The position numbers and the translations under genes are program-made. Of a stretch of DNA of 64,000 nucleotides, positions 5,226 to 30,861 are shown piece after piece. The notes beneath the pieces are model-generated. The model ran no database searches, was not told where the DNA came from, and saw nothing but the letters and a program-made list of their open reading frames with translations. Origin of the DNA: Verrucomicrobiota bacterium (GTDB taxonomy: Bacteria; Verrucomicrobiota; Kiritimatiellia; CAIQIC01; JAGNIJ01); contig DAISJM010000005.1 of assembly GCA_036821485.1 (NCBI GenBank), positions 16,815 to 80,814 on the forward strand, in the 5' to 3' direction. The first letter of the stretch is position 1. Each line of letters opens with the position of its first letter.

Positions 5226-6165
5226 CAAGCGTTTCCTCGCGGTGTGCCCTGTGGGTCTGGGCTTTGGCGACGACAAGGAACAGGCAACTGGCGACGAGTA
5301 TGAGTCCGCCGATCCACTGCAGGCTTCCCATCCGTTCGCCGAGCGCTCCGTACGCAAGGATTGCCGTGGCGAACGGAATGAAGAGCAGCGAGCCTTCCGA
5401 CGCGATGGGTCCGAGTGTGTGGATCGCGCGATAAAACAGCACATGACCGAGCGCAATGCCGGCGATGGCCGAGATCCAGATCAACACCCATATGCGCAGT
5501 GACAGGCTGAGCACGGGGTGCCAGTCGCCCACGCCGAACATCAGCGCGATGAGGCCGGGCGCGGCGTAGAGGCTGATAACCCCGAAGCTCACGCGCGGGG
5601 AGTAGCCATGCATAAACTTCCGGACGAGGACGGAGTAGAACCCCCAGCACGACGCCGTGACGATGAGGAGGATCATGCCCGCTGCCGATGTGGATGTGGT
5701 CCCGAGGCCGCCGATGTAGAGGGCGATGAGGCCGGCCGCGGTCCCGCCGAAGCCGACCCAGAACAACGGCCGACGTGCGAGAGGTCGTTCCTCGCGCAGG
5801 AGCGAGAATCCGAGCAGCGTTGTGAAAAGGAACGAACTTCGGCTCACAAAATTGATGACGGTGGCGTCGTTGAAATAGGGGGTGAGGCCGAAGAGCATCT
5901 GGCCGACAAGATGGATGATGGCGGGCGGCAGGGCATCCTTCCAGATGTTGCGTCCCGGTGGTACTTCGTGGACGTGACGCAGCACGTAAGGAAGCCAAAA
6001 GAGCGCGGCAAAGGTGTAACGCAGGCCGTTGACCGTCCACGCATCGAGCCGGTGAGAGAAGAACTTGAGCAGCAGCGGGACGCTGGACCAGAAAAAGATC
6101 GCCGTGGCGAGAGACAGTACGGCTGCGAGTGTGCCATTCCGATTCATGGATGTGCCTGCTGGCAT
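5206..6165 (-). CDS. EamA/DMT-superfamily transporter (10-TM permease)
   Basis: Polytopic hydrophobic protein with two EamA-like halves. The provided ORF extends to 6282, but the likely start is MPAGTSMNRNG (6165) or MNRNG (6147). Confidence 0.75.
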   Translation of the reverse strand: MPAGTSMNRNGTLAAVLSLATAIFFWSSVPLLLKFFSHRLDAWTVNGLRYTFAALFWLPYVLRHVHEVPPGRNIWKDALPPAIIHLVGQMLFGLTPYFNDATVINFVSRSSFLFTTLLGFSLLREERPLARRPLFWVGFGGTAAGLIALYIGGLGTTSTSAAGMILLIVTASCWGFYSVLVRKFMHGYSPRVSFGVISLYAAPGLIALMFGVGDWHPVLSLSLRIWVLIWISAIAGIALGHVLFYRAIHTLGPIASEGSLLFIPFATAILAYGALGERMGSLQWIGGLILVASCLFLVVAKAQTHRAHREETLVTSTAD

Positions 6166-6313
6166 GACGTGGAATCTACGACTGGGTGGGGACGGGGGCG
6201 AGGAAGAAAGTGAATAGAGAGGGGGCCGCCTTTGCAGTCTCGCCAAGGCTCGACTGACTACGGCGTGACAGGGGCTTGCCATCCGAAGCTCAAGCGAAGC
6301 GCGGAGCGAAGGA

Positions 6314-6389
6314 TGGTGGCTGGAGTCGGAATCGAACCGACGACCCAGGGCTTATGAGTCCCTTGCTCTGCCAACTGAGCTATCCAGCC
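6314..6389 (-). tRNA. tRNA-Met (anticodon CAT), elongator type
   Basis: The reverse complement folds as a 76-nt cloverleaf: acceptor GGCTGGA/TCCAGCC, D-arm GCTC-AGTTGGCA-GAGC, anticodon loop CTCATAA (CAT), T-arm GTCGG-TTCGATT-CCGAC, 3' ACCA encoded. G1-C72 is paired, so it is not an initiator. tRNA-Ile2 (lysidine) cannot be excluded. Confidence 0.85.
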
Positions 6390-6511
6390 ATGTTGTGCCG
6401 TGGAGAAACTAGGGAAGAGGGCGGCTTTTGTCAACACGCGCCGCACGGGGTGATACCCGCTTGTGTGGGCCCGCAGGAATTGGTATTTGGGTGCCTGACA
6501 AGGATGTAACG

Positions 6512-8179
6512 ATGCTGACAAATCTCCGCGTAAAGAACCTCGCGCTGGTGGAAAGTATCCGGGTGGAATTCGGGCCGGGCCTGAATGTCATTACCGGCGA
6601 GACCGGTGCGGGCAAGTCCATCCTGATCGGAGCGCTGAGCCTGCTGCTGGGCGACCGGGCCGATCGCGGCATGATTCGCGCGGGCGAGGATGCGTGTGGT
6701 GCGGAAGCAGCTTTTCAGCTCAAAGACTCCGCCGCGGTGGATGAGGTCCTCGAAAAATACGGGATCGATCCGTGTCAGGACGGGCAACTGATCATCCGCC
6801 GCATCATCAAGGCGTCAGGTTCTTCCCAGAGTCTCGTCAACGACAGCCCGATCACGCTGCAGGCGCTCAAGGAGATCGGCCAGTTGCTGGTCGACATGCA
6901 TGGGCCGCACGATCATCAGTCACTGTTGAGTCCCGAGTTTCAGATGGATCTGCTCGACGCGTTTGGTCACTCGTGGGATGAGCGCGCAGCTTACGAGGAG
7001 ACGTTCCGAAAAATCCAGGCCTTGGAAGAGCGGCGCGCCGCGTTGGAAGGCGCCGGTGAGAATGTGGCGGAACAGATCGACCTCTTGAGCTACCGCGTGA
7101 AAGACATCGAAGAAGCGGCGCCGGTGGAGGGCGAGGAGGAGAAGGTTGAGCAGGAGCAGCTGCTCGTGGGTAACGCGCAGCGCGTGTTAGAGCTGGGGCA
7201 GGCCGCTCTGCAGGCTCTCGCCGAGGGTGAGGGATCGGCCTTTGATTCGATGGCCCTTGCACAACGATCGCTCGATGAGCTGGCGCGGCTGATGCCGGAA
7301 GCGGAGGAGTGGAAGACGGAAATCCATTCGTGTGCGTCCCGTTTGCAGGAAGTGTCTGCCACCCTGCACGGTGCGCTGGATCGCGTGGAAGCCGATCCGT
7401 CCCGTCTGGATTGGTTGGATCAGCGGCTGGCGACCTATCAGAGGCTGAAGCGGAAGTATGCGCCGACGGTCGAGGGCGTGCTGAAGATTCTACAGGAATC
7501 GAAGGATCGACTTCGCAATCTGGAGACACGGGGCGAGCAGTTGGCGGAGATTGAAAAGGAGAAGGAAGCCCTGTTGCGGACCTTGCGTACACAAGGCGGG
7601 GCGCTGCGCGCGAAGCGCAGCGGGGCAGCCAATCGGTTAGCGTTGGCGGTGACGCAGGAACTTCGGGCGCTGGGATTCGCGCATGGATCATTCTCGGTTG
7701 AACTGCGCGATGCGGAGCCACATCTCTCGGGCTTGGATGACATCGAATTTGGATTTGCGCCCAACGTAGGCGAACCGATGCGACCGTTGCGCGCCATTGC
7801 CTCGAGCGGAGAAATCTCGCGTGTCATGTTGGCGTCCAAAGCGGTGCTGGCAGGCCATGATCGAATCCCGGTTATGGTGTTCGACGAAATCGATGCCAAC
7901 GTCGGCGGCGAAATGGGCAGTGCGGTGGGGCGGAAGCTTGCAGAAGTGGCGCGCCAGCACCAGGTGATTTGCATTACGCATCTTCCGCAGGTGGCGGTCC
8001 ACGGTGTCTCGCATCTCGCAGTGACCAAGTCCGTCAAAGACAGCCGGACGATGACCGAAGTGAAACAGCTCGACGAACGCGGCCGCGTGGAAGAACTGGC
8101 GCGAATGTTGGGCGGCCGGGATTTGACCAGCGTCACACTCAAGCATGCGCGCGAGATGCTGGATGGCGTGAAGCGCTGA
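6512..8179 (+). CDS. recN: DNA repair protein RecN
   Basis: N-terminus MLTNLRVKNLALVESIRVEFGPGLNVITGETGAGKSIL (Walker A) and long coiled-coil middle. The C-terminus VMVFDEIDANVGGE...ICITHLPQVA carries the SMC-like signature/Walker B. 555 aa from the internal ATG at 6512. Confidence 0.9.
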   Translation: MLTNLRVKNLALVESIRVEFGPGLNVITGETGAGKSILIGALSLLLGDRADRGMIRAGEDACGAEAAFQLKDSAAVDEVLEKYGIDPCQDGQLIIRRIIKASGSSQSLVNDSPITLQALKEIGQLLVDMHGPHDHQSLLSPEFQMDLLDAFGHSWDERAAYEETFRKIQALEERRAALEGAGENVAEQIDLLSYRVKDIEEAAPVEGEEEKVEQEQLLVGNAQRVLELGQAALQALAEGEGSAFDSMALAQRSLDELARLMPEAEEWKTEIHSCASRLQEVSATLHGALDRVEADPSRLDWLDQRLATYQRLKRKYAPTVEGVLKILQESKDRLRNLETRGEQLAEIEKEKEALLRTLRTQGGALRAKRSGAANRLALAVTQELRALGFAHGSFSVELRDAEPHLSGLDDIEFGFAPNVGEPMRPLRAIASSGEISRVMLASKAVLAGHDRIPVMVFDEIDANVGGEMGSAVGRKLAEVARQHQVICITHLPQVAVHGVSHLAVTKSVKDSRTMTEVKQLDERGRVEELARMLGGRDLTSVTLKHAREMLDGVKR

Positions 8180-8187
8180 GTGTTGGC

Positions 8188-11100
8188 TCAATTCTTCTGA
8201 AGTTCCTGCTGGGCGGTATAGCGCAGGCGGACGGCATCATCGCTGGTGAGCTCGCCCGACTTGGCCAGGCTGGGGACGGCGGCATAGACGAAATCGGCCA
8301 ACTGTTCGCGGGTCCAGCCCTTCTTCTCCTGCAGCAGGCGCAGGTATTCGATATCCTGCAGGGCGCGACGCAGGGTCTTCAGCCGGAGCGATGCATAGGG
8401 TTTGTCCTGGTTCGCGGGCATGCCGCAGTAGAACAGCGACTGCGGACTCCCGCGGAGCCAATGTTCGGGAAGACCGATGGTCTCGCGGATGCTCCATCCG
8501 TCCGCGCCTTCGCAGAAGCCGGCGAGAGCCGTGGCTTCGACATCCAGCGGGGTCCGGCCCAGCGGTGCGCCTTCCGTCATCAGCCACAGCGTTTCGTCGG
8601 ATAATTTCTGCCGTTCACGCAGGCGCTGCCACGACAGGGGATCGGTATCGCTCACCGTCAGCAGGGAGAAAACGCCGATGCCGTAGTTGCCGATCAGACT
8701 CCCGTCGGGGACCGTGACGCGGAAGACAAACTTGTTCTTGGGCCATGCCGAGGCATCCGATGCGGCGACCAAGGCATAGGATTCCAAGGCCATGAAGTCG
8801 TCACGGAACAGAGGCTCACCAAGAAACCATGGCGGTGCCTTGCCCTTGTACGCGGTGGTCGGGACGTTGTTCAGCCAGAGATGCGCTGCGGTGGTGGACC
8901 AACCGCGGGATCTCAGATGCTCGCGAAACTTCTGGAGCGACGAACGGAAAGCCCGCCAGTAGTTGTTGTCGAGGCAGCTATAGATGCCCTCGGCAGGTCC
9001 GCTGAACACCTTGCATCCCGAGGGGGTGATGACTTCCTGATCCGTGCAGAGAAATCCGTCGAGCAGTGAGGCCGGCCAATTCTCGAAGAGCGGAAGAATA
9101 AAATGCGAGGCGGGTTCGCTGCCTTGGTCCAGGCCGCTGAATACGGAGCCGTCGATCACCCCTGCGTATCGATCGTCCCACGCCTGCCACGAGGGGATGG
9201 TGAGGTCGACGCCCTTTCCTGCGACGCGCGGGGCGAAAGGTTCCGTTACCTCACCATTCCTCTGATAGGGCAGCACGGCCATGGTGCAGAGGTGCTCGCG
9301 AGCCATGCGGTAGTAGGCCTGTTCAACGGGCAGGGCGTCATCCCTGTTCATCGCATCCTTCTTGTAGAGGAGCGCGAGCGACGGTGGTGCAAGAAGTTCC
9401 GCGGTGAATTCCGGTCTCGGCAGCGTGATGGGCAGGACTTCGAGATTCACATTCAGTTCGCTGGAGGTTCCGTCATCGCGGGTGATCTGGATGGGGCCGC
9501 GATAGACGCCCGGTGCGGTGGACGCGGGTATGTACAATTCAGCCAGCACGGATTGGCACGTTTGATTCGGCAGCCGATTGGGCAGCGCGGAGAGGGTCAT
9601 ACTTCCGGAGAGTGGAAGCAGAAGGTCGGCCGTCCAAATGCCGCCATCCGCCGGTGTGGTGGTGTGCGTATACCACGCCCGGTAGAAACGGAAGCCGACA
9701 CCCGGCATGCCGCTCTTCCCCGCTTGGAGCGGCTGCGCGGAGAATTTGAGCGTGGGGAAATCGGCTCCTTTCTTCACCAGGGAAATGATGAAACTGACGG
9801 TCTCATTTCGCGCAGCGCGAAGCCGAATGGTGCGGGAGGTGCGGTCCCATATATGAGACGAGGTCAGCGGTGCGCGGGCACGCGTTGCGTCGGCGTAGGC
9901 GCCGTTGATTGGGTCCACAGCGGCGGTCTCGTCGATGACCTGGAGACCGAGGGCGTTGGCGGCCACATCGATCGGTGCCGCGTCATACGTGTCGAGCTTG
10001 GCGGTCTCGGGCAGGGAGAGCAACTGGGGCGTGCGCACGGTTACTTCATTGAATGGGCCGGCCTGACCTGCTTCGTCGACGGCGCGAACGAAGAAGATGT
10101 AGGACATGTCGGGCTCAAGCTCATCGACGATCATCTGATCCTTCTGGCCGCCGGGTTGCGGGAACGGGATCAGGTTGCGCGGCATGTCCTGTGCGCGATC
10201 GGCGGTGTTCGGGGCCAGGGCCCAGCGCACGTCGTAACGGAAAGCTTGTCCCTCCTTGCCGTCGTCGCCCGGCGCGGTCCATGTGAGGAGAATGCCCACG
10301 CGGTCTCGCCGACGGAGGGACGGATGCGCATAGGCGCAGAGGTCCGACACATCACCGGGTGGCGCCATATCGATGAGGGCACCCTCGACTTCCAGATAGT
10401 GGCTGTTTTCCGCATCCTCGCGGCTGGCCACGGAGAGGGGTGCGTCGAGCTGCCCCTTGGCGTCCGTGATGGCCACGCCGTAGGCGGCATCGGCGACAAG
10501 AGCTTGGATCACGATGGGGTCGAGCGAGATGGATATCCAACCGTCAGCGTTGGTGGATGTCGAACCGAGTTCGCCGAACGCGGTGATGGAGCCGCCATTT
10601 CCGCGGATGACGTGAGGCAATGACGCGCCGTCTTGTCGCCAGGGCCGGTTGCCATAGTTCGCCCAGCGGAAGGTAGCGCCGGCGGTGGTCATGTCCTGCG
10701 TTGTGCCCTTGCCTTCGTCCCATGGCGTGGGAAGTGTGCTGAAGCCGAGGGCACGGCCCCGCCCGGATTTCACTTTGGCGTTCCACGTTGCGCGGTTGAT
10801 GGTCCATCCGCGGATTCGGCTGATGTCAAATTGGGCCAGCACCATGGAATCGTTGCCCTGCAGGAGCAGTTCCGTGGCGGCGCCGACATTGTGATCTTCG
10901 TTTCGCGAGACGGATGTGTCTGCGACCGGCGTCAGGCGCGCCTGTTTGAGGTGGGCGCGCTCAATATAGCCGGGCGACCAGACCGTGGGCCGTGGCGGTT
11001 TGATGTCCGGTACGGTTGATGTGTCGGGCGCCGGCGATGCGGGAGCCGGTGCAGCCGTCGGGGCTGATGTGGTGGAAACAGGGGTGGCGACCTTGGGTGC

Positions 11101-11373
11101 CGGGGAAGGGGATTGAACAGCCGCAGGGGTTTCTACCCGCTCGGTCCGCCTGACCACCTTGGCACCCGGGGGCAGGTTGGGGTAGAACTCGGCCTCGCTC
11201 TTGGCTCCCTCGCGCGATTTCAGCTGTGCATTGCGGACGCCCTTGTAGAACAGGCCGCCGAGGGCAATGGAGACGATAACGGCTGAGGCGTAGACCAAGC
11301 CGGAAACGAAGTTGAACGGCATCACCGATTTGTGGCGGTGAGGCGTCACATGGCGTTTACGAATTTTCCGCAT
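8188..11373 (-). CDS. Large membrane-anchored exported protein with Pro/Ala/Thr-rich linker and fibronectin-III-like domain (hypothetical, ~1060 aa)
   Basis: Single N-terminal TM (VSGLVYASAVIVSIALGGLF), a PAPKVATPVSTTSAPTAAPAPASPAPD linker, and an fn3-like segment LTWTAPGDDGKEGQAFRYDVRWA. Last gene of the minus-strand cluster after wzm/wzt. Start is M at 11373 (ORF extends to 11448). Confidence 0.6.
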   Translation of the reverse strand: MRKIRKRHVTPHRHKSVMPFNFVSGLVYASAVIVSIALGGLFYKGVRNAQLKSREGAKSEAEFYPNLPPGAKVVRRTERVETPAAVQSPSPAPKVATPVSTTSAPTAAPAPASPAPDTSTVPDIKPPRPTVWSPGYIERAHLKQARLTPVADTSVSRNEDHNVGAATELLLQGNDSMVLAQFDISRIRGWTINRATWNAKVKSGRGRALGFSTLPTPWDEGKGTTQDMTTAGATFRWANYGNRPWRQDGASLPHVIRGNGGSITAFGELGSTSTNADGWISISLDPIVIQALVADAAYGVAITDAKGQLDAPLSVASREDAENSHYLEVEGALIDMAPPGDVSDLCAYAHPSLRRRDRVGILLTWTAPGDDGKEGQAFRYDVRWALAPNTADRAQDMPRNLIPFPQPGGQKDQMIVDELEPDMSYIFFVRAVDEAGQAGPFNEVTVRTPQLLSLPETAKLDTYDAAPIDVAANALGLQVIDETAAVDPINGAYADATRARAPLTSSHIWDRTSRTIRLRAARNETVSFIISLVKKGADFPTLKFSAQPLQAGKSGMPGVGFRFYRAWYTHTTTPADGGIWTADLLLPLSGSMTLSALPNRLPNQTCQSVLAELYIPASTAPGVYRGPIQITRDDGTSSELNVNLEVLPITLPRPEFTAELLAPPSLALLYKKDAMNRDDALPVEQAYYRMAREHLCTMAVLPYQRNGEVTEPFAPRVAGKGVDLTIPSWQAWDDRYAGVIDGSVFSGLDQGSEPASHFILPLFENWPASLLDGFLCTDQEVITPSGCKVFSGPAEGIYSCLDNNYWRAFRSSLQKFREHLRSRGWSTTAAHLWLNNVPTTAYKGKAPPWFLGEPLFRDDFMALESYALVAASDASAWPKNKFVFRVTVPDGSLIGNYGIGVFSLLTVSDTDPLSWQRLRERQKLSDETLWLMTEGAPLGRTPLDVEATALAGFCEGADGWSIRETIGLPEHWLRGSPQSLFYCGMPANQDKPYASLRLKTLRRALQDIEYLRLLQEKKGWTREQLADFVYAAVPSLAKSGELTSDDAVRLRYTAQQELQKN

Positions 11374-11476
11374 CAACCCCTCTCCCGACCCGTGGGGAAC
11401 CAAATGGCCTCCATCCGCAGGATACAACGAAACAGACCGTGGATACAAGGCCGGAGCGCGGGGTCAACGCAGCCTT

Positions 11477-12658
11477 TCAGTGTGCCGCATGGTGATCCCA
11501 TGCGGCGCTGAGCTGGAAAATGCCGATGGCCTGCGTCGGATTCTTTACGGCGAAGGGGTACCAGTCTTCCCGGCGGTGGAATTGCACGGCGTGGTCCCAT
11601 GAGTGGACGGAAAGCGAGAGGAAGAAATTGCCCTGCATGAGGGTCAGTGGATCGATGCGGAGGCGGACCGAACCCTCACCCTCAATGGAGGGGATGCGGT
11701 AGTTGGCAATCTGGGTGTTGGAGCCGAAGACGTAGAACCCATTGCCGGTCTTGATGGAGAACCCGAAAACGGGATTGTCGATTTTCTTGCCGGCGCGGTA
11801 GAAAATCTCTGCGACGAGCGGCTGTCCCGTGGTGAAGGTCGCGGCCTCATGGCCCGCTGCGTCGAGGAGTTTGACGTCGGTGATCTCCACGTCGCGGGTG
11901 CCATACTCCTGCGTGTAGAGATAGCCGCCTTCGCCCATGTAGGCCTTGATATACTTCAGGATCACGTCGGACGGGTTGCCGCGTTCCACGAGCCGGCCGT
12001 GGTGGATCAGAAATGCCTCGTCGCAGAATTCCTCGACGGTTTGCAGCGCGTGGGACACGAAGAGCAGCGTCTTGCCCTTGCGCTGAAATTCACGGATGCG
12101 ATCAAGACACCTGAGCTGGAAGGCGATGTCGCCGACGGCGAGCACCTCGTCGATCAGCAGGATGTCCGGGTTCATTTCGACGGCGACGGCAAAGCCGAGT
12201 CGGACATACATGCCGCTGGAGTAATGCTTCACCGGCATATCGATGAAGTCCTTCAGTCCGGCGAAATCGACGATGTGGTCGAAACGGCGGCGCACGTCCT
12301 CGCGCGCGATGCCGAGGATGGCCGCATTGAGAAAGACGTTTTCGCGACCGGTGAGGTCGGGGTGGAACCCCGCGCCCAGTTCCAGTAGCGAAGAGATGCG
12401 CCCGTCGGTGGTGATGGAGCCCTGCGTGGGCGTGATGGTGCCGGCCACGAGGCCCAGCAGGGAGCTTTTGCCCGAACCGTTGGGGCCGATAACGCCGACG
12501 GTGCGGCCCTTGGGAATGGTGAAATCGACGTCGTGCAGGGCCCAGAACGGCTCTGTCCGTGCGCCGCGAAGTGAGTTCAAAATGGAACCGAACAGCGTGG
12601 GCGGCGCGACGCCCTGCTTCCGGTAGCACTTGCTCACGTTTCTGGCTTCAATAGCGTT
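11477..12658 (-). CDS. wzt: ABC-2 type polysaccharide/O-antigen exporter ATP-binding protein with C-terminal substrate-binding domain (Wzt/TagH-like)
   Basis: Walker A GPNGSGKSSLL, signature YSSGM, Walker B LLIDEVLAVGD, H-loop FVSHA, plus a ~140-aa C-terminal beta-rich extension typical of Wzt. The start MNAIEARNVSKCY lies immediately after the wzm stop. Confidence 0.85.
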   Translation of the reverse strand, partial: NAIEARNVSKCYRKQGVAPPTLFGSILNSLRGARTEPFWALHDVDFTIPKGRTVGVIGPNGSGKSSLLGLVAGTITPTQGSITTDGRISSLLELGAGFHPDLTGRENVFLNAAILGIAREDVRRRFDHIVDFAGLKDFIDMPVKHYSSGMYVRLGFAVAVEMNPDILLIDEVLAVGDIAFQLRCLDRIREFQRKGKTLLFVSHALQTVEEFCDEAFLIHHGRLVERGNPSDVILKYIKAYMGEGGYLYTQEYGTRDVEITDVKLLDAAGHEAATFTTGQPLVAEIFYRAGKKIDNPVFGFSIKTGNGFYVFGSNTQIANYRIPSIEGEGSVRLRIDPLTLMQGNFFLSLSVHSWDHAVQFHRREDWYPFAVKNPTQAIGIFQLSAAWDHHAAH

Positions 12659-12660
12659 CA

Positions 12661-13461
12661 TCAGAGCATATCCGCAAAAAATCTCTGGGCGCGTTCGAAT
12701 ACTGCGCAGGCCACCGCAAACAGAACCAGCGGGATGGCCAGGCCGATGATGCTGGAGACGGTCCACGGAAAAACAGCGCCCGGCAGCGTGATCGCGCGGT
12801 AGGCGGTGATGATGACGGCCATCGGGTTCAGCAAATACAGATCCATGACCCACGGGGCCTTGCCCGCGAAGCGTTCGACAAAGGAAAGATTATACATCAC
12901 CGGGCTGACGAAGAACCATGCGCTGAGAAGTACGCCGACGAGGTGTTGCGTGTCGCGAAAGTAGACGTTGGAGCTGGAGAGCAGCAGGGCGATGGCGAGG
13001 TTGAAGATCGTGTGATAGAGCACGACCACGGGGAGAAGGAGCAGCCACCCGCTCATCGATGCGCCACGCACGTGCAGCAGCACGGCAACGATGACAAACT
13101 GGACGAGGAGCGAGAGAAGAAAATTCACGAGGTTTGCCAGTGTGTTCGCGGTGGGCAGGATGATGCGGGGGAAGAAGACCTTCTTCACCAGGTTCGAGTT
13201 GCCGGTGATGCTGGTCAGGCCGCCGCTGACGGAGAGCGCTGTGAACTGCCACGCAAAGACGCCGATGATGATTTCCTCGGTCGGAACGCCGCGCCCGGCG
13301 AGCAGGCGGAGAAAGAAGACATAGATGATGGCCATCAGGAGCGGGGTCAGAATGCTCCAGAGAAAACCAAGGAGGGAGCCCTTGTAGCGGCTCTTCAACT
13401 CGCGGGAGACGAGATTCGCCAGCAGCTCGCGTCGCCCGGACAATGTGCGAAGAAAACTCAT
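12661..13461 (-). CDS. wzm: ABC-2 type exporter permease (Wzm/TagG/KpsM family)
   Basis: 6-TM ABC-2 permease. Directly upstream of, and translationally coupled to, the Wzt-like ATPase. Confidence 0.8.
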   Translation of the reverse strand: MSFLRTLSGRRELLANLVSRELKSRYKGSLLGFLWSILTPLLMAIIYVFFLRLLAGRGVPTEEIIIGVFAWQFTALSVSGGLTSITGNSNLVKKVFFPRIILPTANTLANLVNFLLSLLVQFVIVAVLLHVRGASMSGWLLLLPVVVLYHTIFNLAIALLLSSSNVYFRDTQHLVGVLLSAWFFVSPVMYNLSFVERFAGKAPWVMDLYLLNPMAVIITAYRAITLPGAVFPWTVSSIIGLAIPLVLFAVACAVFERAQRFFADML

Positions 13462-13506
13462 TGAAACCTTGGCGCGACCCACGGGGTGCTGCGCGCGCTT
13501 TCCTTT

Positions 13507-14010
13507 CTACCGCGATCCGGACTTCTTTTCCAGCGCTTCGAGCACCAACGTGGCCCGGCCGAAGCCCGGCACCTGGTCCTGCGCGCTGATGTTGAGCTCG
13601 GCCAGCCGCCACGGCGGCCTGTTGCCGGACTCCGAGACGCGATCAAGCAATCGGGAAAGATCGGCCAGGCGGATACGATCGATGGTTACTTCCACGCTGC
13701 GCAGGGTCCAGCCTTCGGCTAGGGGACGCGACTCGCGGAGCCGTTGCTGGGTCTCGATGCCGGGGAAGGCGCTGCGGAGAAGGTTGTCCAGCGGCGCGGG
13801 TGTGTGCTGCGGCAGCTTTTCATATAGCTCGATTGCGGCAGTTTCCCGGTCGCAGCCGGCCTGCAGGACGCGCAGTTTTTCCAACGTGTCGATCCGGCTG
13901 CGGATCTGGCGCGCGGATTCCGGTGTAAGGCGCAGCGCCTGCACGGTGATGAGGATTCCGGCGGCGAACATCGCCGCCGACGCCATAAGAAACATGGAGC
14001 GCCGCGTCAC
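13507..14010 (-). CDS. gspM: T2SS protein M / PilO-like bitopic inner-membrane protein
   Basis: 167 aa with N-terminal TM (MFLMASAAMFAAGILITV), a coiled segment and a periplasmic domain. It lies immediately downstream of a GspL-like gene with a 4-bp overlap. Confidence 0.5.
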   Translation of the reverse strand: MTRRSMFLMASAAMFAAGILITVQALRLTPESARQIRSRIDTLEKLRVLQAGCDRETAAIELYEKLPQHTPAPLDNLLRSAFPGIETQQRLRESRPLAEGWTLRSVEVTIDRIRLADLSRLLDRVSESGNRPPWRLAELNISAQDQVPGFGRATLVLEALEKKSGSR

Positions 14011-15464
14011 GATGACGGCCCTCCTGCGGATCGCGCGCCCTTGATGGTGAAATGCACGCGTTCGTCCTCGAGCGCATCCTGCCGTTCGATACTGACGATG
14101 AACCCCGCGTTGCGCAGCGGCGCGGCGAGTCCGGCGCAGCGGTCCCAGTCGGGGGAGCTTCCGCGCAGCGTGGCTACGTCGTCGATCAGCGACAGCGCCT
14201 CGATGTCCATACCCGTGTCGCGCGCGATTTTCAGGATGTCGGACAGCAGGCTGGTGAGGGGTGGTTCAACATTCTGGAGAAAAGGCGTCAGGGTTGGCGC
14301 GCGTTGTTCGATCGCTCGCTGTACGGTCAGGATCTCCTGACCTTTCGGAATTCGCGACGTGCGCGCGAGTTTTGAGGCCAGGCTGCTGATGGATTCCTGC
14401 AGGAGGCCCCGACGCTGCTCCAGGAAAGCGCGCCAGGTCAGTCCCATACCGCAGAGGAGCAAGCCTGCGACAAGGCAGGTTGTGGCGGCCAGCGAGACTT
14501 GGCGTTCCTGCCACAACGCCGCCCGCGGATGCGCGAGGGCGCCCGACCGGAAGTTGCAGGAGAGGGGTGTACTCCGCAGGCTCCGGGCGGCAAGGGCCCG
14601 GGCGAGGAAGAGAGATGGGCGATCGTGTGTCGCAAAGCGAATGCTGCCGGTTCCGCCTAGCGCCGTCTGCAGCGCGGCGATCGCGGTGGATGTGGCGCCG
14701 GGGCCCGTCCATAGCCACAGGACCGGTTGACTGTTGGCGGCGGGTTGCGAGAGCAATACCTGTCGCGCGCGCTGGGCAAATTGGCGGATTCGGTCCGGGT
14801 CGGCTTCCAACTCGGCCCATCCCATTCGGATGGCATGGGAACTGGCGTAATCCAGACCGCGCCCGGTGACCAGTGCTGCATGTTCCGTGCCGAGGCAGGC
14901 CACGATGCGCACGGTGTCCCGCTCGGGAGGAATCTCCTCTGTGCTTTGGCTCCACAGCGCGAGACCTTCGTGGTCCAGCCGGTCCGGCGACACGCCCATG
15001 TCCTCAAGGGCGGCGAGACGTTGCTCGACATCTTCCGTGCGCGCGGCTACGCCGAGGGCGTCCACGGACCCGGCGCTGTTGCGACCTACGCCTACGAACT
15101 CGCACCGGCACGCCTCGATGGGGAAAGGCAACTGGATATCCAGCATGGACGGCAGCACCTTGCGCGCCTTGGTCACGGAGGACAGGGGTGTTTGTATCCA
15201 GCGGGTAAGGCTCTCGTGGACAGGCATGCAGGCCGAGACCAGCGCGTGGCCGGCTTCCGCCTCGGCCCGCACGCGGGCGAGGATGGCGGTGGTCGACGCA
15301 TCGGGCGGACCCGCGTGATCGAGCACCGCTTCTTCCTTCAGCCCGCGTCGTGTCCGCTCGGAGCGAACGACAACCAAGCGGTTGCGCGCGGCGTCGACGC
15401 CATAGCTGATGCTGCATTGCCGGGCTTCAAACATATCCATCTCGCGCTGTGTCAGAAGACCCAC
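14007..15464 (-). CDS. gspL: T2SS protein L-like (PilM-like cytoplasmic actin-fold domain + TM + PilN-like periplasmic domain)
   Basis: Cytoplasmic N-domain ~330 aa, one TM (LAATTCLVAGLLLCGMGLTW), then a periplasmic ~160-aa domain. The architecture matches GspL or a PilM-PilN fusion. Start uncertain (M at 15464 or 15440). Confidence 0.6.
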   Translation of the reverse strand: MGLLTQREMDMFEARQCSISYGVDAARNRLVVVRSERTRRGLKEEAVLDHAGPPDASTTAILARVRAEAEAGHALVSACMPVHESLTRWIQTPLSSVTKARKVLPSMLDIQLPFPIEACRCEFVGVGRNSAGSVDALGVAARTEDVEQRLAALEDMGVSPDRLDHEGLALWSQSTEEIPPERDTVRIVACLGTEHAALVTGRGLDYASSHAIRMGWAELEADPDRIRQFAQRARQVLLSQPAANSQPVLWLWTGPGATSTAIAALQTALGGTGSIRFATHDRPSLFLARALAARSLRSTPLSCNFRSGALAHPRAALWQERQVSLAATTCLVAGLLLCGMGLTWRAFLEQRRGLLQESISSLASKLARTSRIPKGQEILTVQRAIEQRAPTLTPFLQNVEPPLTSLLSDILKIARDTGMDIEALSLIDDVATLRGSSPDWDRCAGLAAPLRNAGFIVSIERQDALEDERVHFTIKGARSAGGPSS

Positions 15465-16762
15465 TGGATCGCGTCCACATCGCCTTGCGCATCGCGCCGG
15501 GCCAGCACGCGAAGGTGCTCGGTTCGGCCCTCGGCATACGCTTGCACGTCGACCACGAATGCGGAACTCTTCACATCAAGATACCTGCCTGCAGTGCGCA
15601 GGAACTGCGGGTCCGCGGAAATCGCGGAGGTTTCCACGGAGCGGATGGGGCCGAGGGCGCGCTGGAAAAGAATGGCCGCCACGAGATCTTCGCGATCGAG
15701 CCCGAGAACGCCAAGAAGGACCTCCTTGCTGGCGGTATTCACGTTGACCGGCAGCGGCCGCGCGCGCGGCAGCGGCACGACGGTAAGGCAGTCCACGAAG
15801 TCGGCGTTGAAGACTTCGAGCGCGCTGTGACGCGGATGCCGTTCAAAAAAGGCGCGTGAGAATCCCCGCACCTGCGCCCACTCACCCCACGAGTAAAGGA
15901 TACGGTTGGCAGGACGGTAGGGCGGCGTCAGCGTTTTGTAGTAGGCGGATTCGCCCGTGCCGTCATCGTCCCCGTCGATCCAGTCCTTGAGGGCTTCGAC
16001 GCGCTCAACGGGGGAGAAGTCGCCGCAGAGCGTCATGATGTCCATCACGATGTCGTCCGCCGTGCGGGTGGAGTTGCCGGTGGTGGTTACGGCGAGATTG
16101 TTGACGTCGAAACAGCGGCTCTCGTCGAGGATGCGCACGCGGGTGGTGATGCCGGAGGGATCCTTGACTTCGCGCGTGATGGCCCACGCCTCATTGGTGT
16201 GGTCCACGACGAGGTCCTCGTCATCGGCGAGCCGTTGGAGGGCGGCGTGTGCGGCGTCCGTGGCCGCATGCTGAAGCTGTGCGGTCAGCACCGAAGCCTG
16301 CCGCTGCCGCAACGCGGCGCGTGCGGCGGTCTGCGCCTGCAGGACGAGTCCGGCGACAAGTCCCAACATGATCAGCACGAGGATCAATACCGCGCCACTT
16401 TCATCGGAAGGGGTTGCCGGATCCGCTTCAACCGTCGCGGGAGTTGCCTCGCCGAACTTCGTATTGAGATAGGGTTGCGGACGGTGCTGGCTGGTGCCTG
16501 TGCCGCGGAATCGCTCCAGGATCAGCCGGAGCACAATGAGGAGGACCCCGACGACAAGGTAGCCGAGGCTGAACGCCGCCATGCGGTGATGATTGGCCGT
16601 GAACACGCGGAGGAAACTCAGCGCGAAGATGATGACGCTGCAGATCAGCGACAGGATGCCCACGACGAGGGACAGCAGCGACACCTTCTTAAAGAAACGT
16701 CGCCGGGCATGGTAAGCGTGGCCCTGTCTCTGCCGGCGTTCTCTGTCTCGGTGCTGCGTCAT
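15452..16762 (-). CDS. gspK: T2SS minor pseudopilin K-like protein (GspK) with an unusual ~110-aa N-terminal extension carrying two extra hydrophobic segments
   Basis: From ~aa 115 there is a hydrophobic pseudopilin-like segment (GAVLILVLIMLGLVAGLVLQAQTAARAALRQRQ), then ...EAWA..., and the GspK helix-hairpin-helix motif PVNVNTASKEVLLGV. The upstream in-frame extension, with two further hydrophobic segments, is atypical. An internal GTG start is possible. Confidence 0.65.
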   Translation of the reverse strand: MTQHRDRERRQRQGHAYHARRRFFKKVSLLSLVVGILSLICSVIIFALSFLRVFTANHHRMAAFSLGYLVVGVLLIVLRLILERFRGTGTSQHRPQPYLNTKFGEATPATVEADPATPSDESGAVLILVLIMLGLVAGLVLQAQTAARAALRQRQASVLTAQLQHAATDAAHAALQRLADDEDLVVDHTNEAWAITREVKDPSGITTRVRILDESRCFDVNNLAVTTTGNSTRTADDIVMDIMTLCGDFSPVERVEALKDWIDGDDDGTGESAYYKTLTPPYRPANRILYSWGEWAQVRGFSRAFFERHPRHSALEVFNADFVDCLTVVPLPRARPLPVNVNTASKEVLLGVLGLDREDLVAAILFQRALGPIRSVETSAISADPQFLRTAGRYLDVKSSAFVVDVQAYAEGRTEHLRVLARRDAQGDVDAIQWVF

Positions 16763-16882
16763 GGGGCCTTACTATGTCGGAAGCCTCCCGGCCGCGCCAC
16801 AAAAAATGGAGGCCCTGTATGACGTCACGGAGCCTGCGCTTGAACTCCGGAAGGCTTTGGAACACAATGCGGCGCGAAAGAA

Positions 16883-18121
16883 ATGACCATGTCACGCATT
16901 GCCTATCTTGTGTTGCCGGCGTTGGCGCTGATGGCGGGGTGCAAAACCACCACGTTGAAAAAGCCTGCGGTGCAGCCTGCTGCCGTGGTTCAGCCATTGC
17001 CTGCCGTCACCACGAATACCCCGGCCGCGGTGACACAGCCTTCACCCAAGGCCGCCCGGCGCCAGGCGGAGCGCGAGGCGGAACAGTATCGCGACGAGGT
17101 CCGTCGGCTGGAGAAAACGGTGGCCGGCCAGCGCGAGACCCAGGAGAAGCTCAACGCCAAGATTCGGGCTGTTCAGCAGCAGATTCAGCAGGCGCAGGAG
17201 GAATTGCAGCGGTTGCAGGGCGGTACGCTCGACTCGGACGTGCGCTTGGCGAGGAACGAGACAGCCCTTCAGAAGCTCAAGGACAATTCCGGCTTGCCGG
17301 AAGGGGCCGCTGGTCGCGAAGCAGCGCTGAAGAAGACGATCGCAGAAGAACAGCGGAAGGTCAGCACGCAGGAGATCCTGCTGGAACAGAAGGAGCGGGA
17401 AATACGCGATCTGCGAGAGGCGATTTCCGCTCGCGACGAGCAGTTGAAGCAGAAGACGCCGGTGGCGGAGCCGCCGTCCGTGGTTACCAATGCGCCCGCG
17501 CTCGCAGTGACGCCGAAACCCACGCCGGTTCCGCCGGCGGTGGTGTCGACCGCCGTACCGCCGCGCGTTGTCGCTGCCCGGTTGGTGACCGATGGACAGC
17601 AACTGGTGAAGGAAGGCAAACTGGCCGCGGCAGAAGATTGCTTCACGCGTGCGCTGGCGCTCAACCCCAAGCTGGATGATGCGCGATTTGGTTTTGCCTC
17701 GTGCCGCTATGCCACGGGAGATGTGGCGGGTGCAAAGAAGGCGCTCGATGAATTGCTGAAGAGGAATAAGAGGCACGGTCCCGCGCTGGGATTGGCCGGG
17801 ATCATCGCCCTCAAGCAAAACGATTTGCGTACGGCGAGGGACCGCTTTGAGCATGCGGTGAAGCGGAGCCCGAAAGATGCGCGGCTGCATACGAATCTGG
17901 CCATTGTCTATGATGGCATGAGGAAGAAGAAAGCAGCGCTGAGGGAATTGCGAAAGGCCGTAGCTCTTGATCCGAACCTGGCGGAGGCGCGGTTCAACCT
18001 CGCCATTCTCCTGGTGTCGGAGAAGCCGCCGAAATTGACCGAGGCCAAGCACCACTACCAGACCGCTCTGCAACTGGGGAGTACGCGTGATGAGAGACTT
18101 GAAAAGATTCTGTACCAGTAA
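16883..18121 (+). CDS. Lipoprotein with coiled-coil region and C-terminal TPR repeats
   Basis: Lipobox LPALALMAGC, a charged coiled-coil (AEREAEQYRDEVRRLEK...), a Pro-rich linker and TPR-like repeats (ALALNPKLDDARFGFA...; AVALDPNLAEARFNLA). Confidence 0.65.
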   Translation: MTMSRIAYLVLPALALMAGCKTTTLKKPAVQPAAVVQPLPAVTTNTPAAVTQPSPKAARRQAEREAEQYRDEVRRLEKTVAGQRETQEKLNAKIRAVQQQIQQAQEELQRLQGGTLDSDVRLARNETALQKLKDNSGLPEGAAGREAALKKTIAEEQRKVSTQEILLEQKEREIRDLREAISARDEQLKQKTPVAEPPSVVTNAPALAVTPKPTPVPPAVVSTAVPPRVVAARLVTDGQQLVKEGKLAAAEDCFTRALALNPKLDDARFGFASCRYATGDVAGAKKALDELLKRNKRHGPALGLAGIIALKQNDLRTARDRFEHAVKRSPKDARLHTNLAIVYDGMRKKKAALRELRKAVALDPNLAEARFNLAILLVSEKPPKLTEAKHHYQTALQLGSTRDERLEKILYQ

Positions 18122-18131
18122 TCAAAACCCG

Positions 18132-19466
18132 ATGAACCTGTGCTCGTGGGTGCTGGCCGCCGCGTTGTGGCTATCGGCGATGTCCGGGGCATGGGCGGAG
18201 GAAGGCGCCGTGCCGCCTTTGCAGGAGGCATCGGATGCCTATGTTGCGCTGGTGCAGGCCGACCAGGCACGGGATCGCAGCGATTGGAAGGCGGCGGCGC
18301 AGGGGTACCGCGAGGCCACCCAGCGTTACACCAAGTTGAACAAGCAATATCCAACATGGGAGCCCGACATCGTTCAGTATCGCGTGGCCTATTGCATGAA
18401 CCAGATCGAGGTGATCGGCCAGAAGACGGGGGTTTCCAATCCGATGCCCGCGACAACAGAGGTGACAGCCGCCCCGGTCGCGGCAGCGGCCACCGCCGCG
18501 ACCAAGGCGCCTGCCGGCGATTCATATCGCGAGCGCTACCTGGCGATGCTCGAAGAGAATCAGTACCTGCGCCAGCGCATGGCCGAATTGCAGGGCGCGG
18601 CGGATGAGGGCGGTGGGGACGCAGAGCTGCCGGCGCAAACCAATGCCGAGGTGATTGCAGATGGGGTTCAGGATGTGCCTGTGGAGCAGGAACTGGCCGA
18701 GGTATTGAAGGAGAACGCGGGGTTGAAGTCGCGCGTGCGTGAACTTGAAGCAAGCGCAGAGGGTGCGTCGGCAACCAATCCGGTCATGGAATCCCTGAAG
18801 GGACAGATGGATGCGGTGCGTCGCGAGAATGTTGAATTGAAGAAGGCGTTGCATGACGCCGTGTCCACGGGCGGGGCTGCTCCGGTGGCCTTGATGCCCG
18901 ATGCCACCGATGAATTCCCCAACCTTATGCGTGCAGCACTGGCGCAGGAGCGGCAGGGCAATTTCCCGGCAGCGCTCCATATCTACGAGCGTGCGGTGGC
19001 GCTGCGTCCGGCGCATGCAGAAGCGGCCCGGGCGAAAGCGCGATGTCTGCTCCAGCAGGATCGTGTCAGCGAGGCGATGGGCGTGTTGCAGGGCGTCCTC
19101 GCCCGAAATCCCGGCGACAACCGGGCGCGCCTGCTGATGGGTATTGCATCATGCAAGGCTGGGCTGTTCAGCGACGCTGCGGAAGTCTTGCGGCCGGTGC
19201 TGCAGACCGATCCATCGAACGCCCGGACGCAGAACGCGATGGGCGCGGCCTATATGGGGCTTGGGGATTTGCAGGCGGCGCGTGTAACGTTGGAGAAGGC
19301 GGTTTCGCTCGATCCCGGCTTGGGCGACGCCCAGCTCAACCTCGCGCAGGTGCTGGCGGTGGGGCCCCAGGCCGATCGCTTGAAGGCCCGGGAACATTAC
19401 GCCAAGGCGATCGAGCTGGGTATGTCGGCGGATCCCGCCCTTCAGCAGATTCTCAACACACCGTGA
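18132..19466 (+). CDS. Secreted coiled-coil/TPR repeat protein (paralogous architecture to preceding gene)
   Basis: Signal peptide MNLCSWVLAAALWLSAMSGAWA, a central coiled-coil and C-terminal TPR repeats (AVALRPAHAEAARAKARC...; AVSLDPGLGDAQLNLAQV). The ORF begins at 18087 and the signal-peptide Met is at 18132. Confidence 0.65.
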   Translation: MNLCSWVLAAALWLSAMSGAWAEEGAVPPLQEASDAYVALVQADQARDRSDWKAAAQGYREATQRYTKLNKQYPTWEPDIVQYRVAYCMNQIEVIGQKTGVSNPMPATTEVTAAPVAAAATAATKAPAGDSYRERYLAMLEENQYLRQRMAELQGAADEGGGDAELPAQTNAEVIADGVQDVPVEQELAEVLKENAGLKSRVRELEASAEGASATNPVMESLKGQMDAVRRENVELKKALHDAVSTGGAAPVALMPDATDEFPNLMRAALAQERQGNFPAALHIYERAVALRPAHAEAARAKARCLLQQDRVSEAMGVLQGVLARNPGDNRARLLMGIASCKAGLFSDAAEVLRPVLQTDPSNARTQNAMGAAYMGLGDLQAARVTLEKAVSLDPGLGDAQLNLAQVLAVGPQADRLKAREHYAKAIELGMSADPALQQILNTP

Positions 19467-19488: not shown

Positions 19489-21207
19489 CTACTGATTCCA
19501 TCTGACCCGATCGGTCAGGAACAACTGGTCCATGTTGCCGAGGGGGAACCCCTGCGTCAGGGGGAAATCGCTCGGGATTCGGCCTTCCTGGATGGGGAAC
19601 CATGTCTTCTCGGGGCCCATGAGGAGCCCGCGAACAAAGGGTTTGTCCCTCGTGATCGTGGTGAAATAGAGGCCGCTGACCTTCTTGTGGAAATCGTTGA
19701 TCTCGTAGAAATCATCCACCGTATCCGGCAGGAGCAGCGAATTCCGGTTGCCGTACCAGGCCGTGGCCCATGGCATATCCGTGCAGATCATCTCCTCCGG
19801 CGTCAGCATCTTGCTCACGTGCATGATGAACGGCGGGAAGTAGGGTGGGTAAGGCATGGGCGCGCGCGGCGGCAACATGGTCAGGATGAGTGGCATGGCG
19901 CCCAGCAACATGAAGAGGGCGGTCAGCGCCAGGTTATATAGACGGACGCGCAGTTGCAGGCGGTCGAGCAGGATGAAGAAGAATGCAAGGCCGTAGACAA
20001 TGATCAGGGGCCAGAACATGTGAAGCAGGCGGATGGTGGATTCACCGAAAGCGCTGGCCACGATGGTGAGCAGTGCCATGGAAAGGGCCATGCCCCAGCG
20101 GAGCACGTGTACCGCGGTTCTCATGAAACGGTAGAAGAACGCGGTGAGGAAGAAGCAGATGAATAATCCGTCGCCGAGCGAGCGGATCGAGCCCTGGTAG
20201 AACTTCGCGATATTCTCCATGGCGCGGCCCTTGACCTCGCCGAGCAGCTTGCCGGGCGTGATGGCCGGGGAGAGGTCCCTCTCGAAGGTCGAGTTGCCGG
20301 GAGTCACGGAGGCATCGAGCGTGGTGTAGGGGGCGAGGCCGAAGGGGCTGCCGCTGACCATGACGTTACGCACAAGCCACGGCGAGGCCAGGACCAGGAA
20401 GACGACCACGAATCCGGTTGCCCATTTCCATCCGTTGCGCGGAAAGAGCAGGCCGATCATCAGCGCGATGCCGGGCACGAGCGTCGCCGCAGCATAACGG
20501 GTCCAGAACGCCATCGCGCACAGCACAACCGATGCGGCGAGCGCCATCATCCACTTCATGGCCGGCGCGTCTTCCTCGCGCAGGAGAACGGCCAGTGTCG
20601 TGGCGTAGAGGGCGGCGGTGGCCAGGAAGGTGACAAAGGAAACACTGAGGCCGGAGATGCTGTCGCTCCAGACGGTGTCGCTCAGGAAAAACATGGTTAC
20701 CGCGAGCAACGCCATGCGCCGGTCGAAGAGGCGACGTGTCATCAGGAAGAGGATGATGCCGGTGAGCAGCGTGAAGAGATGGCACATGGGGATGACCACC
20801 CATTGCTCGGGGGCGAACATGGCGGAGACCTTGTCGCTCACGAACGAGGTGCCTGAGAGTTTGAAGCCGGCGGCCAGCACGGCGGGCCAGAGCGGTGCGT
20901 GCAGAATGTCGGGATGCGCATCAATCTGTGCCTTGTGCTGACTCGAGTTCTTGACCAGGTACCACATGCTGGCCGGGCGGACACACTGGGTGATGAATCG
21001 GCCGTGCGTCATCAGGTTGCGGCCCAGTTGGGCGTTGTCCATCGCCTCGGGATCCTTCAATCCGCGGAACTGCGTCGCGGTGTAGAGGAGCATGACGATC
21101 AGGATGAAGAGGATATAGAGACCGCCCTTGATGAGGCGCAAGCCGATGCCCACGTCCACGTTGTAGACTAGGTTCTGAATCCTGTTCTCAAACGGTTTTG
21201 CGGCCAT
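19489..21207 (-). CDS. Polytopic membrane protein, GT-C fold glycosyltransferase-like (PMT/ArnT-like family 39/83)
   Basis: 572 aa, ~12 TM segments. The early periplasmic-loop motif DNAQLGRNLMTHGRF resembles the GT-C (ArnT/PMT) signature loop. No cytoplasmic catalytic domain. Confidence 0.55.
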   Translation of the reverse strand: MAAKPFENRIQNLVYNVDVGIGLRLIKGGLYILFILIVMLLYTATQFRGLKDPEAMDNAQLGRNLMTHGRFITQCVRPASMWYLVKNSSQHKAQIDAHPDILHAPLWPAVLAAGFKLSGTSFVSDKVSAMFAPEQWVVIPMCHLFTLLTGIILFLMTRRLFDRRMALLAVTMFFLSDTVWSDSISGLSVSFVTFLATAALYATTLAVLLREEDAPAMKWMMALAASVVLCAMAFWTRYAAATLVPGIALMIGLLFPRNGWKWATGFVVVFLVLASPWLVRNVMVSGSPFGLAPYTTLDASVTPGNSTFERDLSPAITPGKLLGEVKGRAMENIAKFYQGSIRSLGDGLFICFFLTAFFYRFMRTAVHVLRWGMALSMALLTIVASAFGESTIRLLHMFWPLIIVYGLAFFFILLDRLQLRVRLYNLALTALFMLLGAMPLILTMLPPRAPMPYPPYFPPFIMHVSKMLTPEEMICTDMPWATAWYGNRNSLLLPDTVDDFYEINDFHKKVSGLYFTTITRDKPFVRGLLMGPEKTWFPIQEGRIPSDFPLTQGFPLGNMDQLFLTDRVRWNQ

Positions 21208-30702: not shown

Positions 30703-30861
30703 ATCGGGAACCTGGGCCGCAAGTGTGGCGTGAGGCCGGGGCAAGCGCAAGGGTTTTGCGGCGCGGGCTCGCCGGAAAATGCTGTCCTCGGCGCGCCGGG
30801 TGACGTAACATCCAACGGCCATACGGCAGAGACGTGCGCCGGAAAAAGGTGGAGCGTTGTC

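Follow-up and report, generated by a model that had tools for sequence, protein, structure and literature searches.

The window analyzed here, a 64,000-nucleotide stretch of a Verrucomicrobiota bacterium of the class Kiritimatiellia (assembly GCA_036821485.1, contig DAISJM010000005.1, positions 16,815 to 80,814; G+C 62%), carries on its minus strand genes for GspK-, GspL-, and GspM-type proteins of type II secretion (K, L, and M below), followed by wzm and wzt, the permease and ATPase genes of an ATP-binding cassette (ABC) exporter of glycans. Independent Kiritimatiellia assemblies contain the same five genes in the same order, between differing flanks, at about 38 loci, and we put it at somewhat better than even that they are a conserved Kiritimatiellia operon, a co-expressed unit that joins the last three type II secretion (type IV filament) genes to a Wzm/Wzt exporter.

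Genes of the Locus

A preliminary description of the region had listed six consecutive minus-strand genes in 8188–16762, all of which were found where it had placed them; its naming of K, L, Wzm, and Wzt was right as well, judged by family and profile evidence, and that of M probably so, judged by structure. The features, in window coordinates and with the evidence used, are the following.

16763–16882: divergent intergenic region of 120 bp between K and the first TPR lipoprotein gene; presumed promoter region
15452–16762, minus strand: GspK-type minor pseudopilin (Pfam, NCBIfam, family profile against PDB)
14007–15440 (15464 with a GTG start), minus strand: GspL-type platform protein, a PilM-PilN fusion (Pfam PilM_2, profile against PDB)
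13507–14010, minus strand: PilO/GspM-like bitopic protein (alignment, AlphaFold model, Foldseek)
12661–13461, minus strand: Wzm, ABC-2 permease of a glycan exporter (Pfam ABC2_membrane)
11477–12661, minus strand: Wzt, ABC ATPase with a C-terminal, glycan-cap-binding Wzt_C domain (Pfam ABC_tran and Wzt_C)
8188–11373, minus strand: accessory GH123-like protein of 1,061 amino acids (Pfam, profile, Foldseek)

Contigs from digester metagenomes match the window exactly, and a protein identical to M is assigned by NCBI to a Kiritimatiellia bacterium. A chimeric metagenome-assembled genome (MAG) or an assembly artifact is ruled out by the identical gene order in independent ENA, JGI, and NCBI assemblies.

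K, of 436 amino acids, scores 45.6 bits with the Pfam model T2SSK_1st (cut-off 26.2) and 123.6 bits, over positions 2–307 of 307, with the NCBIfam equivalog model T2SS_GspK, slightly below that model's cut-off of 130; against the PDB, its family profile finds XcpX (5vtm_X, E = 7e-23) and GspK (3ci0_K, E = 1e-11). Residues 1–115 (window 16418–16762, minus strand) are an unusual N-terminal extension with two transmembrane (TM) helices, present in most of the family. After the extension come a prepilin-like hydrophobic segment that begins behind the invariant G123 (AVLILVL) and has a hydrophobic residue, not glutamate, at position +5; a GspK alpha-domain; and a helix-hairpin-helix region containing the previously noted PVNVNTAS motif, whose N340, N342, T343, and A344 are invariant in the alignment. 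In the lineage of L005, L087, and L098 (L numbers label the related loci used for comparison), the two-TM module is a separate gene of 127 amino acids (L005:9618–10001) likewise made up of a basic tail, two TM helices, and a charged tail, which ends at the start of a short K of 324 amino acids. Being fused to K in one case and a gene of its own in the other, the module suggests that GspK has a small, conserved partner in the membrane.

At E ≤ 0.01, L matches only PilM_2 (26.3 bits, cut-off 27) and pilM, TIGR01175 (26.3 bits, cut-off 133), and none of the T2SSL models in Pfam and NCBIfam. Its family profile finds PilM in the PDB with the N-terminal half (residues 39–195; 2ych, 1.4e-7; 5eox, 2.5e-4) and, marginally, PilN with residues 306–438 (3jc8_N, 0.021), and the architecture is that of a GspL or PilM-PilN protein: a cytoplasmic domain with the actin fold of PilM, then a TM helix, then a periplasmic portion that resembles PilN. 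M, of 167 amino acids, has no match in Pfam, NCBIfam, or the PDB sequences, against which its family profile returns noise; hhalign of the M and L families aligns their TM helices alone. The AlphaFold model of M (predicted local distance difference test, pLDDT, 72) combines a TM helix and a long helix with a ferredoxin-like domain, in which a PPW motif is invariant across the alignment, and Foldseek matches it weakly (E ~1e-2) to PilO (5uvr, TM-score 0.70 on the target; 2rjz; 3jc8_O) and Amuc_1100. The confirmation by hidden Markov models proposed in the preliminary description thus came for K and for the Wzt C terminus, with T2SSK and Wzt_C above their Pfam cut-offs, and did not come for L and M, which reach no GspL or GspM model.

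The two exporter genes are more readily recognized. Wzm matches ABC2_membrane above the cut-off (57.6 bits), as expected of a glycan ABC exporter, and, weakly, the galactan Wzm/RfbD model; Wzt combines ABC_tran (75.8 bits) with the C-terminal binding domain described earlier, Wzt_C (103 bits), both above their Pfam cut-offs. Across the related loci the Wzt_C domain is highly conserved, and identities are 52–72% for Wzm and 63–79% for Wzt, against 28–49% for K and L. The window genes do not lie within a polysaccharide biosynthesis cluster, and in the annotated loci no KpsE/KpsD-like partner was seen beside wzm/wzt.

Most junctions are tight. The overlap of K and L claimed earlier exists if L starts at its GTG; with the ATG chosen by gene callers, L begins 12 nt past the K stop. 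L and M do overlap, by 4 nt (GTGA) with a GGAGGG ribosome-binding site ahead, and wzm and wzt do abut, sharing one nucleotide (TGATG). The gap between M and wzm, first given as ~45 bp, is 24 or 45 nt, and that between wzt and the gene of the large protein, given as ~100 bp, is 103 nt. In 7900–17100, no intergenic gap contained a sigma-70 promoter or an intrinsic terminator by consensus scan; the terminator-like sites of that interval, 8 against 6.6 expected, are all within genes. Matches to a sigma-54 pattern (TGGCAC-N5-TTGC, up to two mismatches) were fewer than expected by chance, with none upstream of K or of the glycosyltransferase gene described below; the divergent region at 16763–16882 contained neither a sigma-70 nor a sigma-54 consensus, and Rfam and tRNA scans returned nothing in this region.

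As stated in the preliminary description, GspD, GspE, GspF, and GspG are absent from the window: besides K, L, and M, Pfam and motif scans of the 64 kb found no secretin, secretion ATPase Walker box, GspF, or prepilin motif. The same four proteins are absent from all loci carrying the K-L-M block, and genes of the gspD-J/E/F/G set were found in none of the window and 100+ related loci, L027 excepted. The alternative arrangement named at the outset, gspKLM contiguous with gspD-J, was seen in no locus that carries K-L-M. L027 (1533–4519 and 9800–10861), the most divergent locus and low in G+C, has a K-like gene 5–8 kb from gspE and gspF, the latter two adjoining dnaN and dnaA, and no recognizable L or M gene; the proximity of its K-like gene to gspE-gspF fits K-L-M serving a type II secretion system. 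In Kiritimatiella glycovorans, a type II secretion system and lipopolysaccharide genes have been reported (PMC5148204).

Conservation of the Block

A check of synteny in related genomes, which the preliminary description had suggested, shows the block kept across Kiritimatiellia while its flanks are scrambled. Distant K homologs with 38–44% identity, in L004 and L005, head the same K-L-M-wzm-wzt block within wholly different surroundings, and L007 keeps the block between unrelated flanks, with a HEPN/nucleotidyltransferase toxin-antitoxin pair (13335–14329) inserted between M and wzm; the M-wzm junction thus tolerates a 1-kb insert. In the 38 linked loci, wzm starts a median of ~25 nt past the M stop and no more than 100 nt past it in 35, with M and wzm overlapping in 9, a spacing that supports the single operon inferred at first.

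Scanning one genome per species for K gave 23 loci; but for a few bins that are unclassified or probably misassigned, they come from MAGs labeled Kiritimatiellia, Verrucomicrobiota, or Lentisphaerota. K, L, and M are kept together in these loci, save in the two most divergent, and wzm-wzt directly follows M in 11 of the 17 species-representative genomes with readable DNA past M. K-L-M without wzm/wzt occurs in L016, L017, L018, L021, L026, and L030, where the gene after M is, respectively, that of the giant protein, a convergent amidase gene, again that of the giant protein, a phage-type integrase gene (7133–8518), an AraC-type regulator, and a TPR gene; in L021, a mobile element may have broken the link. 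On the tree of L proteins the linked state occupies the deepest and the inner branches, and so the linkage must be old, with several later losses.

The reverse test, in which metagenomes were scanned with the Wzt_C domain, added 24 loci with K-L-M upstream and 19 that have sufficient upstream DNA and no K-L-M in it. On the Wzt tree, loci lacking K-L-M mostly form clades of their own, and only two nest among 37 linked sequences (2/39 unlinked). In one of these separate clades, a MocA-type oxidoreductase and an NAD epimerase/dehydratase precede wzm, and at another locus lacking K-L-M a GT4 transferase follows wzm/wzt; such sugar-nucleotide and GT4 neighbors are the customary setting of these exporters. 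An epimerase gene also adjoins the block in L005, L087, and L098, where the order is epimerase, two-TM gene, K, L, M, wzm, wzt. K-L-M therefore sits exactly at the junction of epimerase and wzm, two genes that are direct neighbors in one sister clade.

A convergent recN/SMC-type gene (window 6428–8179, plus strand) lies downstream of wzm-wzt in loci with and without K-L-M, so that the synteny of wzm-wzt with recN either predates the linkage to K-L-M or arose independently of it.

The Large GH123-Like Protein

The last of the six genes was first credited with 1,086 amino acids; its most likely start is the ATG at 11373, behind a GGGAGAGGGG site, which gives 1,061. The fn3 domain and proline-rich character ascribed to the protein are both real, and structure prediction, suggested at the time as a check, gives it a fuller identity as a GH123-like pseudo-enzyme: an N-terminal TM anchor and a Pro-rich linker are followed by a DNRLRE/CBM96-like domain, fn3, and the beta-sandwich plus barrel of the GH123 fold. 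The C-terminal 550 residues are GH123 by profile search against the PDB (8k2f, 6e-13) and by Foldseek (BvGH123, 2.7e-13); the model is moderately confident (pLDDT 60.6), and the Pfam GH123 N-domain scores 20 against a cut-off of 27. With the beta-N-acetylgalactosaminidases of the family (BvGH123, 5l7r; CpNga123, 5fqe; NgaCa, 8k2f) the protein shares the N-terminal beta-sandwich, the barrel, and a C-terminal SLRLKxxRRxxQDxEY motif. Unlike them, it is not secreted, being held by its TM helix and Pro-rich linker, and it lacks the Asp-Glu pair, having WFLGEP and WLNN in place of the W..DEP of its relatives and the MDERP of the enzymes.

The loss of the motif is a property of a whole clade. A profile search of 1.84 billion representative proteins gave 2,576 relatives, and among the best 150, which were aligned, W..DEP is found in about 120 of the ~130 proteins outside the clade of the large protein and W.LG.P in all 31 clade members (residues ~833–860 in the window protein); the WLNN of the window protein is L-N-N in the clade. 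The catalytic pair of BvGH123, Asp361-Glu362, lies in MDERP (MD361E362RP), which HMMER aligns, uncertainly (-2.6 bits), opposite the end of the WLNN strand, and the clade has no acidic pair at either candidate position. Because of this loss, we read the large protein as probably a membrane-anchored, nonhydrolytic binder of glycans, and on its sequence it should not be classed as an active GH123 enzyme. The clade of anchored pseudo-glycosidases so far appears confined to Kiritimatiellia.

The gene stands beside the block only in the window and in L007, L009, L013, L016, L018, L034, L047, and L055, and is missing from L004, L005, and many other linked loci. Its inclusion in a six-gene unit was therefore not borne out; it is an accessory, outside the conserved core.

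Wider Neighborhood

Upstream of K, across the divergent region, the window contains the following genes.

16883–18121 and 18087–19466, plus strand: two TPR proteins (Pfam, NCBIfam)
19489–21207, minus strand: GT-C membrane glycosyltransferase of the PMT_2 family (PMT_2 match)
21272–22657, minus strand: response regulator with a sigma-54 activator domain
22654–23850, minus strand: PAS histidine kinase

The first TPR protein has a lipoprotein signal (LMAGC), and both show a weak likeness to the pilotin-like TPR lipoproteins of the PilW/Tgl type. TPR homologs stand beside K in L004, L007, L009, L010, L012, L019, L025, L031, and L057, and beside K or M in L027, L028, and L030. Copies of the GT-C gene, 46–62% identical, occur upstream of K in L007, L012, L014, L017, L026, L028, and L029: directly so in L014, L026, L028, and L029, and near K in L007, L012, and L017, as in the window. 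The array of histidine kinase, response regulator, GT-C, and K is shared by the window, L007, L012, L017, L026, L028, and L029, and in the last of these (5369–14870) it runs on without a break through L, M, wzm, and wzt, eight genes in all.

A second GT-C glycosyltransferase of the PMT_2 family, of 617 amino acids, is encoded at window 29101–30954 (minus strand).

Discussion

Canonical gsp operons end, at their 3′ side, with K, L, and M in this order. The most economical reading of the locus is a gsp operon that was split, its tail being joined to wzm-wzt early in Kiritimatiellia and kept with it as one expression unit. The preliminary description had offered "simply" such a tail, fused to a neighbor, as one of its explanations; the tail fits best, and it is the word "simply" that finds no support, given a fusion that is old and has been retained while the flanks were scrambled. 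The other explanation offered there, a dedicated module for assembling a surface structure, is a possibility.

In a working cell, L and M would form the inner-membrane assembly platform and K would cap the pseudopilus; their partners (secretin, ATPase, platform protein, and major pseudopilins) would be encoded elsewhere. Wzm and Wzt would independently move a lipid-linked polysaccharide across the inner membrane, its capped end being recognized by Wzt_C. With one presumed transcript for both modules, translationally coupled in many genomes, platform and glycan export would be expressed together, and the coupling would most likely be through expression and not through a shared channel. The 1,061-residue protein would be an optional accessory anchored in the inner membrane, probably binding, not cutting, a periplasmic glycan of the N-acetylgalactosamine or N-acetylhexosamine type, and a relative of secreted CBM96-fn3-GH123-like enzymes whose Asp-Glu motif has been lost. 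The occurrence of each module alone in some relatives argues against an obligate physical coupling. How deeply the linkage is retained, the overlapping codons, and the glycan-related genes that keep recurring nearby leave a functional link in play, and a physical coupling of K-L-M and Wzm/Wzt is possible.

With the canonical type II operon (gspC-O, as in pul of Klebsiella, xcp of Pseudomonas, and eps of Vibrio) the locus shares the order of K, L, and M, the full-length match of K to XcpX/GspK, the domain layout of L, and a small bitopic partner in M. It differs in that K-L-M is detached from gspD-J, E, F, and G, K carries or follows the two-TM module, L is closer to PilM/PilN than to GspL, M goes unrecognized by GspM/PilO sequence models, and the operon runs on into wzm/wzt. 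With the Wzm/Wzt exporters of the Escherichia coli O9a type the locus has in common the ABC-2 permease and the Wzt_C-bearing ATPase, and its sister clades lie beside sugar-nucleotide and GT4 genes; the wzm/wzt of the window, however, are outside a glycosyltransferase-rich O-antigen cluster and have secretion-platform genes as upstream partners. Within the same superphylum, the pilus-like cluster Amuc_1098–1102 of Akkermansia has a type IV filament-like platform too, and in Foldseek the Amuc_1100 structures match the M model about as well as PilO does, but there is no sequence similarity. The Akkermansia cluster includes a secretin and is not known to have an ABC exporter.

Several observations weigh against a unit coupled through expression, or against parts of that account. 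The deep retention and the start/stop overlaps of M and wzm exceed what mere co-expression calls for and could reflect a physical or a pathway link, and the recurrence of GT-C and of a glycan-binding pseudo-enzyme points towards a glycan theme around K-L-M. L and M fall below the Pfam and NCBIfam models for GspL and GspM, and M resembles PilO weakly in structure (E ~1e-2). No GspD, E, F, G, H, I, or J was located for this organism, and the partners are assumed to be elsewhere. Finally, the equating of DEP with the catalytic pair of GH123 draws on motif similarity and a low-scoring alignment and is tentative.

A first alternative is that K-L-M (including the two-TM extension of K), Wzm/Wzt, and, where present, the anchored GH123-like lectin and TPR lipoproteins form one envelope-spanning apparatus, in which a pseudopilus-type platform would help to move a glycan or glycoconjugate across the periplasm and the outer membrane, replacing the polysaccharide copolymerase and outer-membrane export (PCP/OPX) proteins of capsule ABC systems. 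For it speak an ancient, order-preserving linkage with overlapping M and wzm codons, the lack of a KpsE/KpsD-like partner beside wzm/wzt in annotated loci, and the gene of the giant protein directly after M in L016 and L018. There is moreover a precedent in Myxococcus xanthus, where the ABC transporter genes pilG-pilH-pilI lie inside the type IVa pilus cluster (PMC6060248). The pilGHI genes of myxobacterial type IVa pilus clusters are the nearest precedent that we have for ABC transporter genes within a type IV filament gene cluster; the M. xanthus cluster, however, has the full set of pilus genes, and the likeness is one of gene context. In that species, pilH is reportedly required for piliation. 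Against a single apparatus stand the occurrence of both modules alone in related genomes, the toxin-antitoxin pair tolerated between M and wzm in L007, and a Wzm and Wzt that are ordinary in size and domains, and we hold it to be unlikely.

At the other extreme, the adjacency may be neutral: a split gsp tail would have landed once upstream of wzm/wzt and been kept only through the dependence of wzm/wzt on the upstream promoter, the co-expression having no functional meaning. This view has in its favor the position of the block precisely at the epimerase-wzm junction, a linkage broken at least 6 times, the insertion tolerated in L007, and the unequal conservation of the modules (Wzt far above K and L). 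A neutral neighborhood would not be expected, on the other hand, to persist in about 38 loci after all other flanking synteny was lost, to evolve or keep stop/start overlaps in 9 of them, or to leave just the two unlinked Wzt sequences within the linked clades; it seems to us quite unlikely.

We regard it as similarly improbable that a pared-down pseudopilus platform (the two-TM module, K, L, and M) is the dedicated partner of Wzm/Wzt, with GT-C and the dead GH123-like lectin assisting, for the assembly or export of a surface glycoconjugate; if true, such a machine, part type IV filament and part ABC-dependent glycan exporter, would have no described counterpart. Highly unlikely is a glycosylation pathway, in which Wzm/Wzt would flip a lipid-linked glycan and GT-C transfer it in the periplasm to K, other pseudopilins, or secretion substrates, much as TfpW or TfpO/PilO glycosylates pilins in Pseudomonas: the GT-C genes at or near K, the contiguous eight-gene array of L029, and a sigma-54 two-component pair that recalls PilS/PilR speak for it, but many K-L-M-wzm-wzt loci (L004, L005, L047, L057, and L102 among them) have no GT-C gene within 3 kb upstream, no major pseudopilin gene is nearby, and PMT_2 enzymes (ArnT/PMT families) normally use monosaccharide polyprenyl-phosphate donors, for which Wzm/Wzt are not needed.

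Returning to the co-expressed unit, all of its parts are of known kinds, and the conserved operonic pairing of GspK-L-M with Wzm-Wzt does not appear to have been described: literature searches found no description of GspK-GspL-GspM together with Wzt, and searches aimed at Kiritimatiellota and type II secretion (T2SS) returned no paper. Type II secretion and ABC-dependent polysaccharide export are usually treated as separate envelope systems, and a coupled operon across the class would mean either a single co-regulated program of surface biogenesis or a physical linkage. Kiritimatiellia specialize in breaking down complex polysaccharides, which are often sulfated, and rely on enzymes that they secrete. 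The locus also supplies specific candidates for a secretion platform that is poorly known in the Planctomycetes-Verrucomicrobia-Chlamydiae (PVC) superphylum and identifies a family of membrane-anchored pseudo-glycosidases.

Other Features of the Window

Two further features lie toward the far end of the window. An Rfam match to the Vibrio antisense RNA V_AS7 (98.6 bits; 56550–56718, plus strand) is antisense within a gene at 54284–56737 that encodes a fusion of pyridine-nucleotide disulfide oxidoreductase, rhodanese, TusA, and DsrE, and the match probably reflects conserved coding sequence and not an RNA gene. A protein of 1,818 amino acids (56869–62325, minus strand) combines lamin-tail and endonuclease/exonuclease/phosphatase domains with many Ig-like repeats (He_PIG, Big_9) and TSP3 repeats and is a candidate nuclease or phosphatase, either secreted or at the cell surface.

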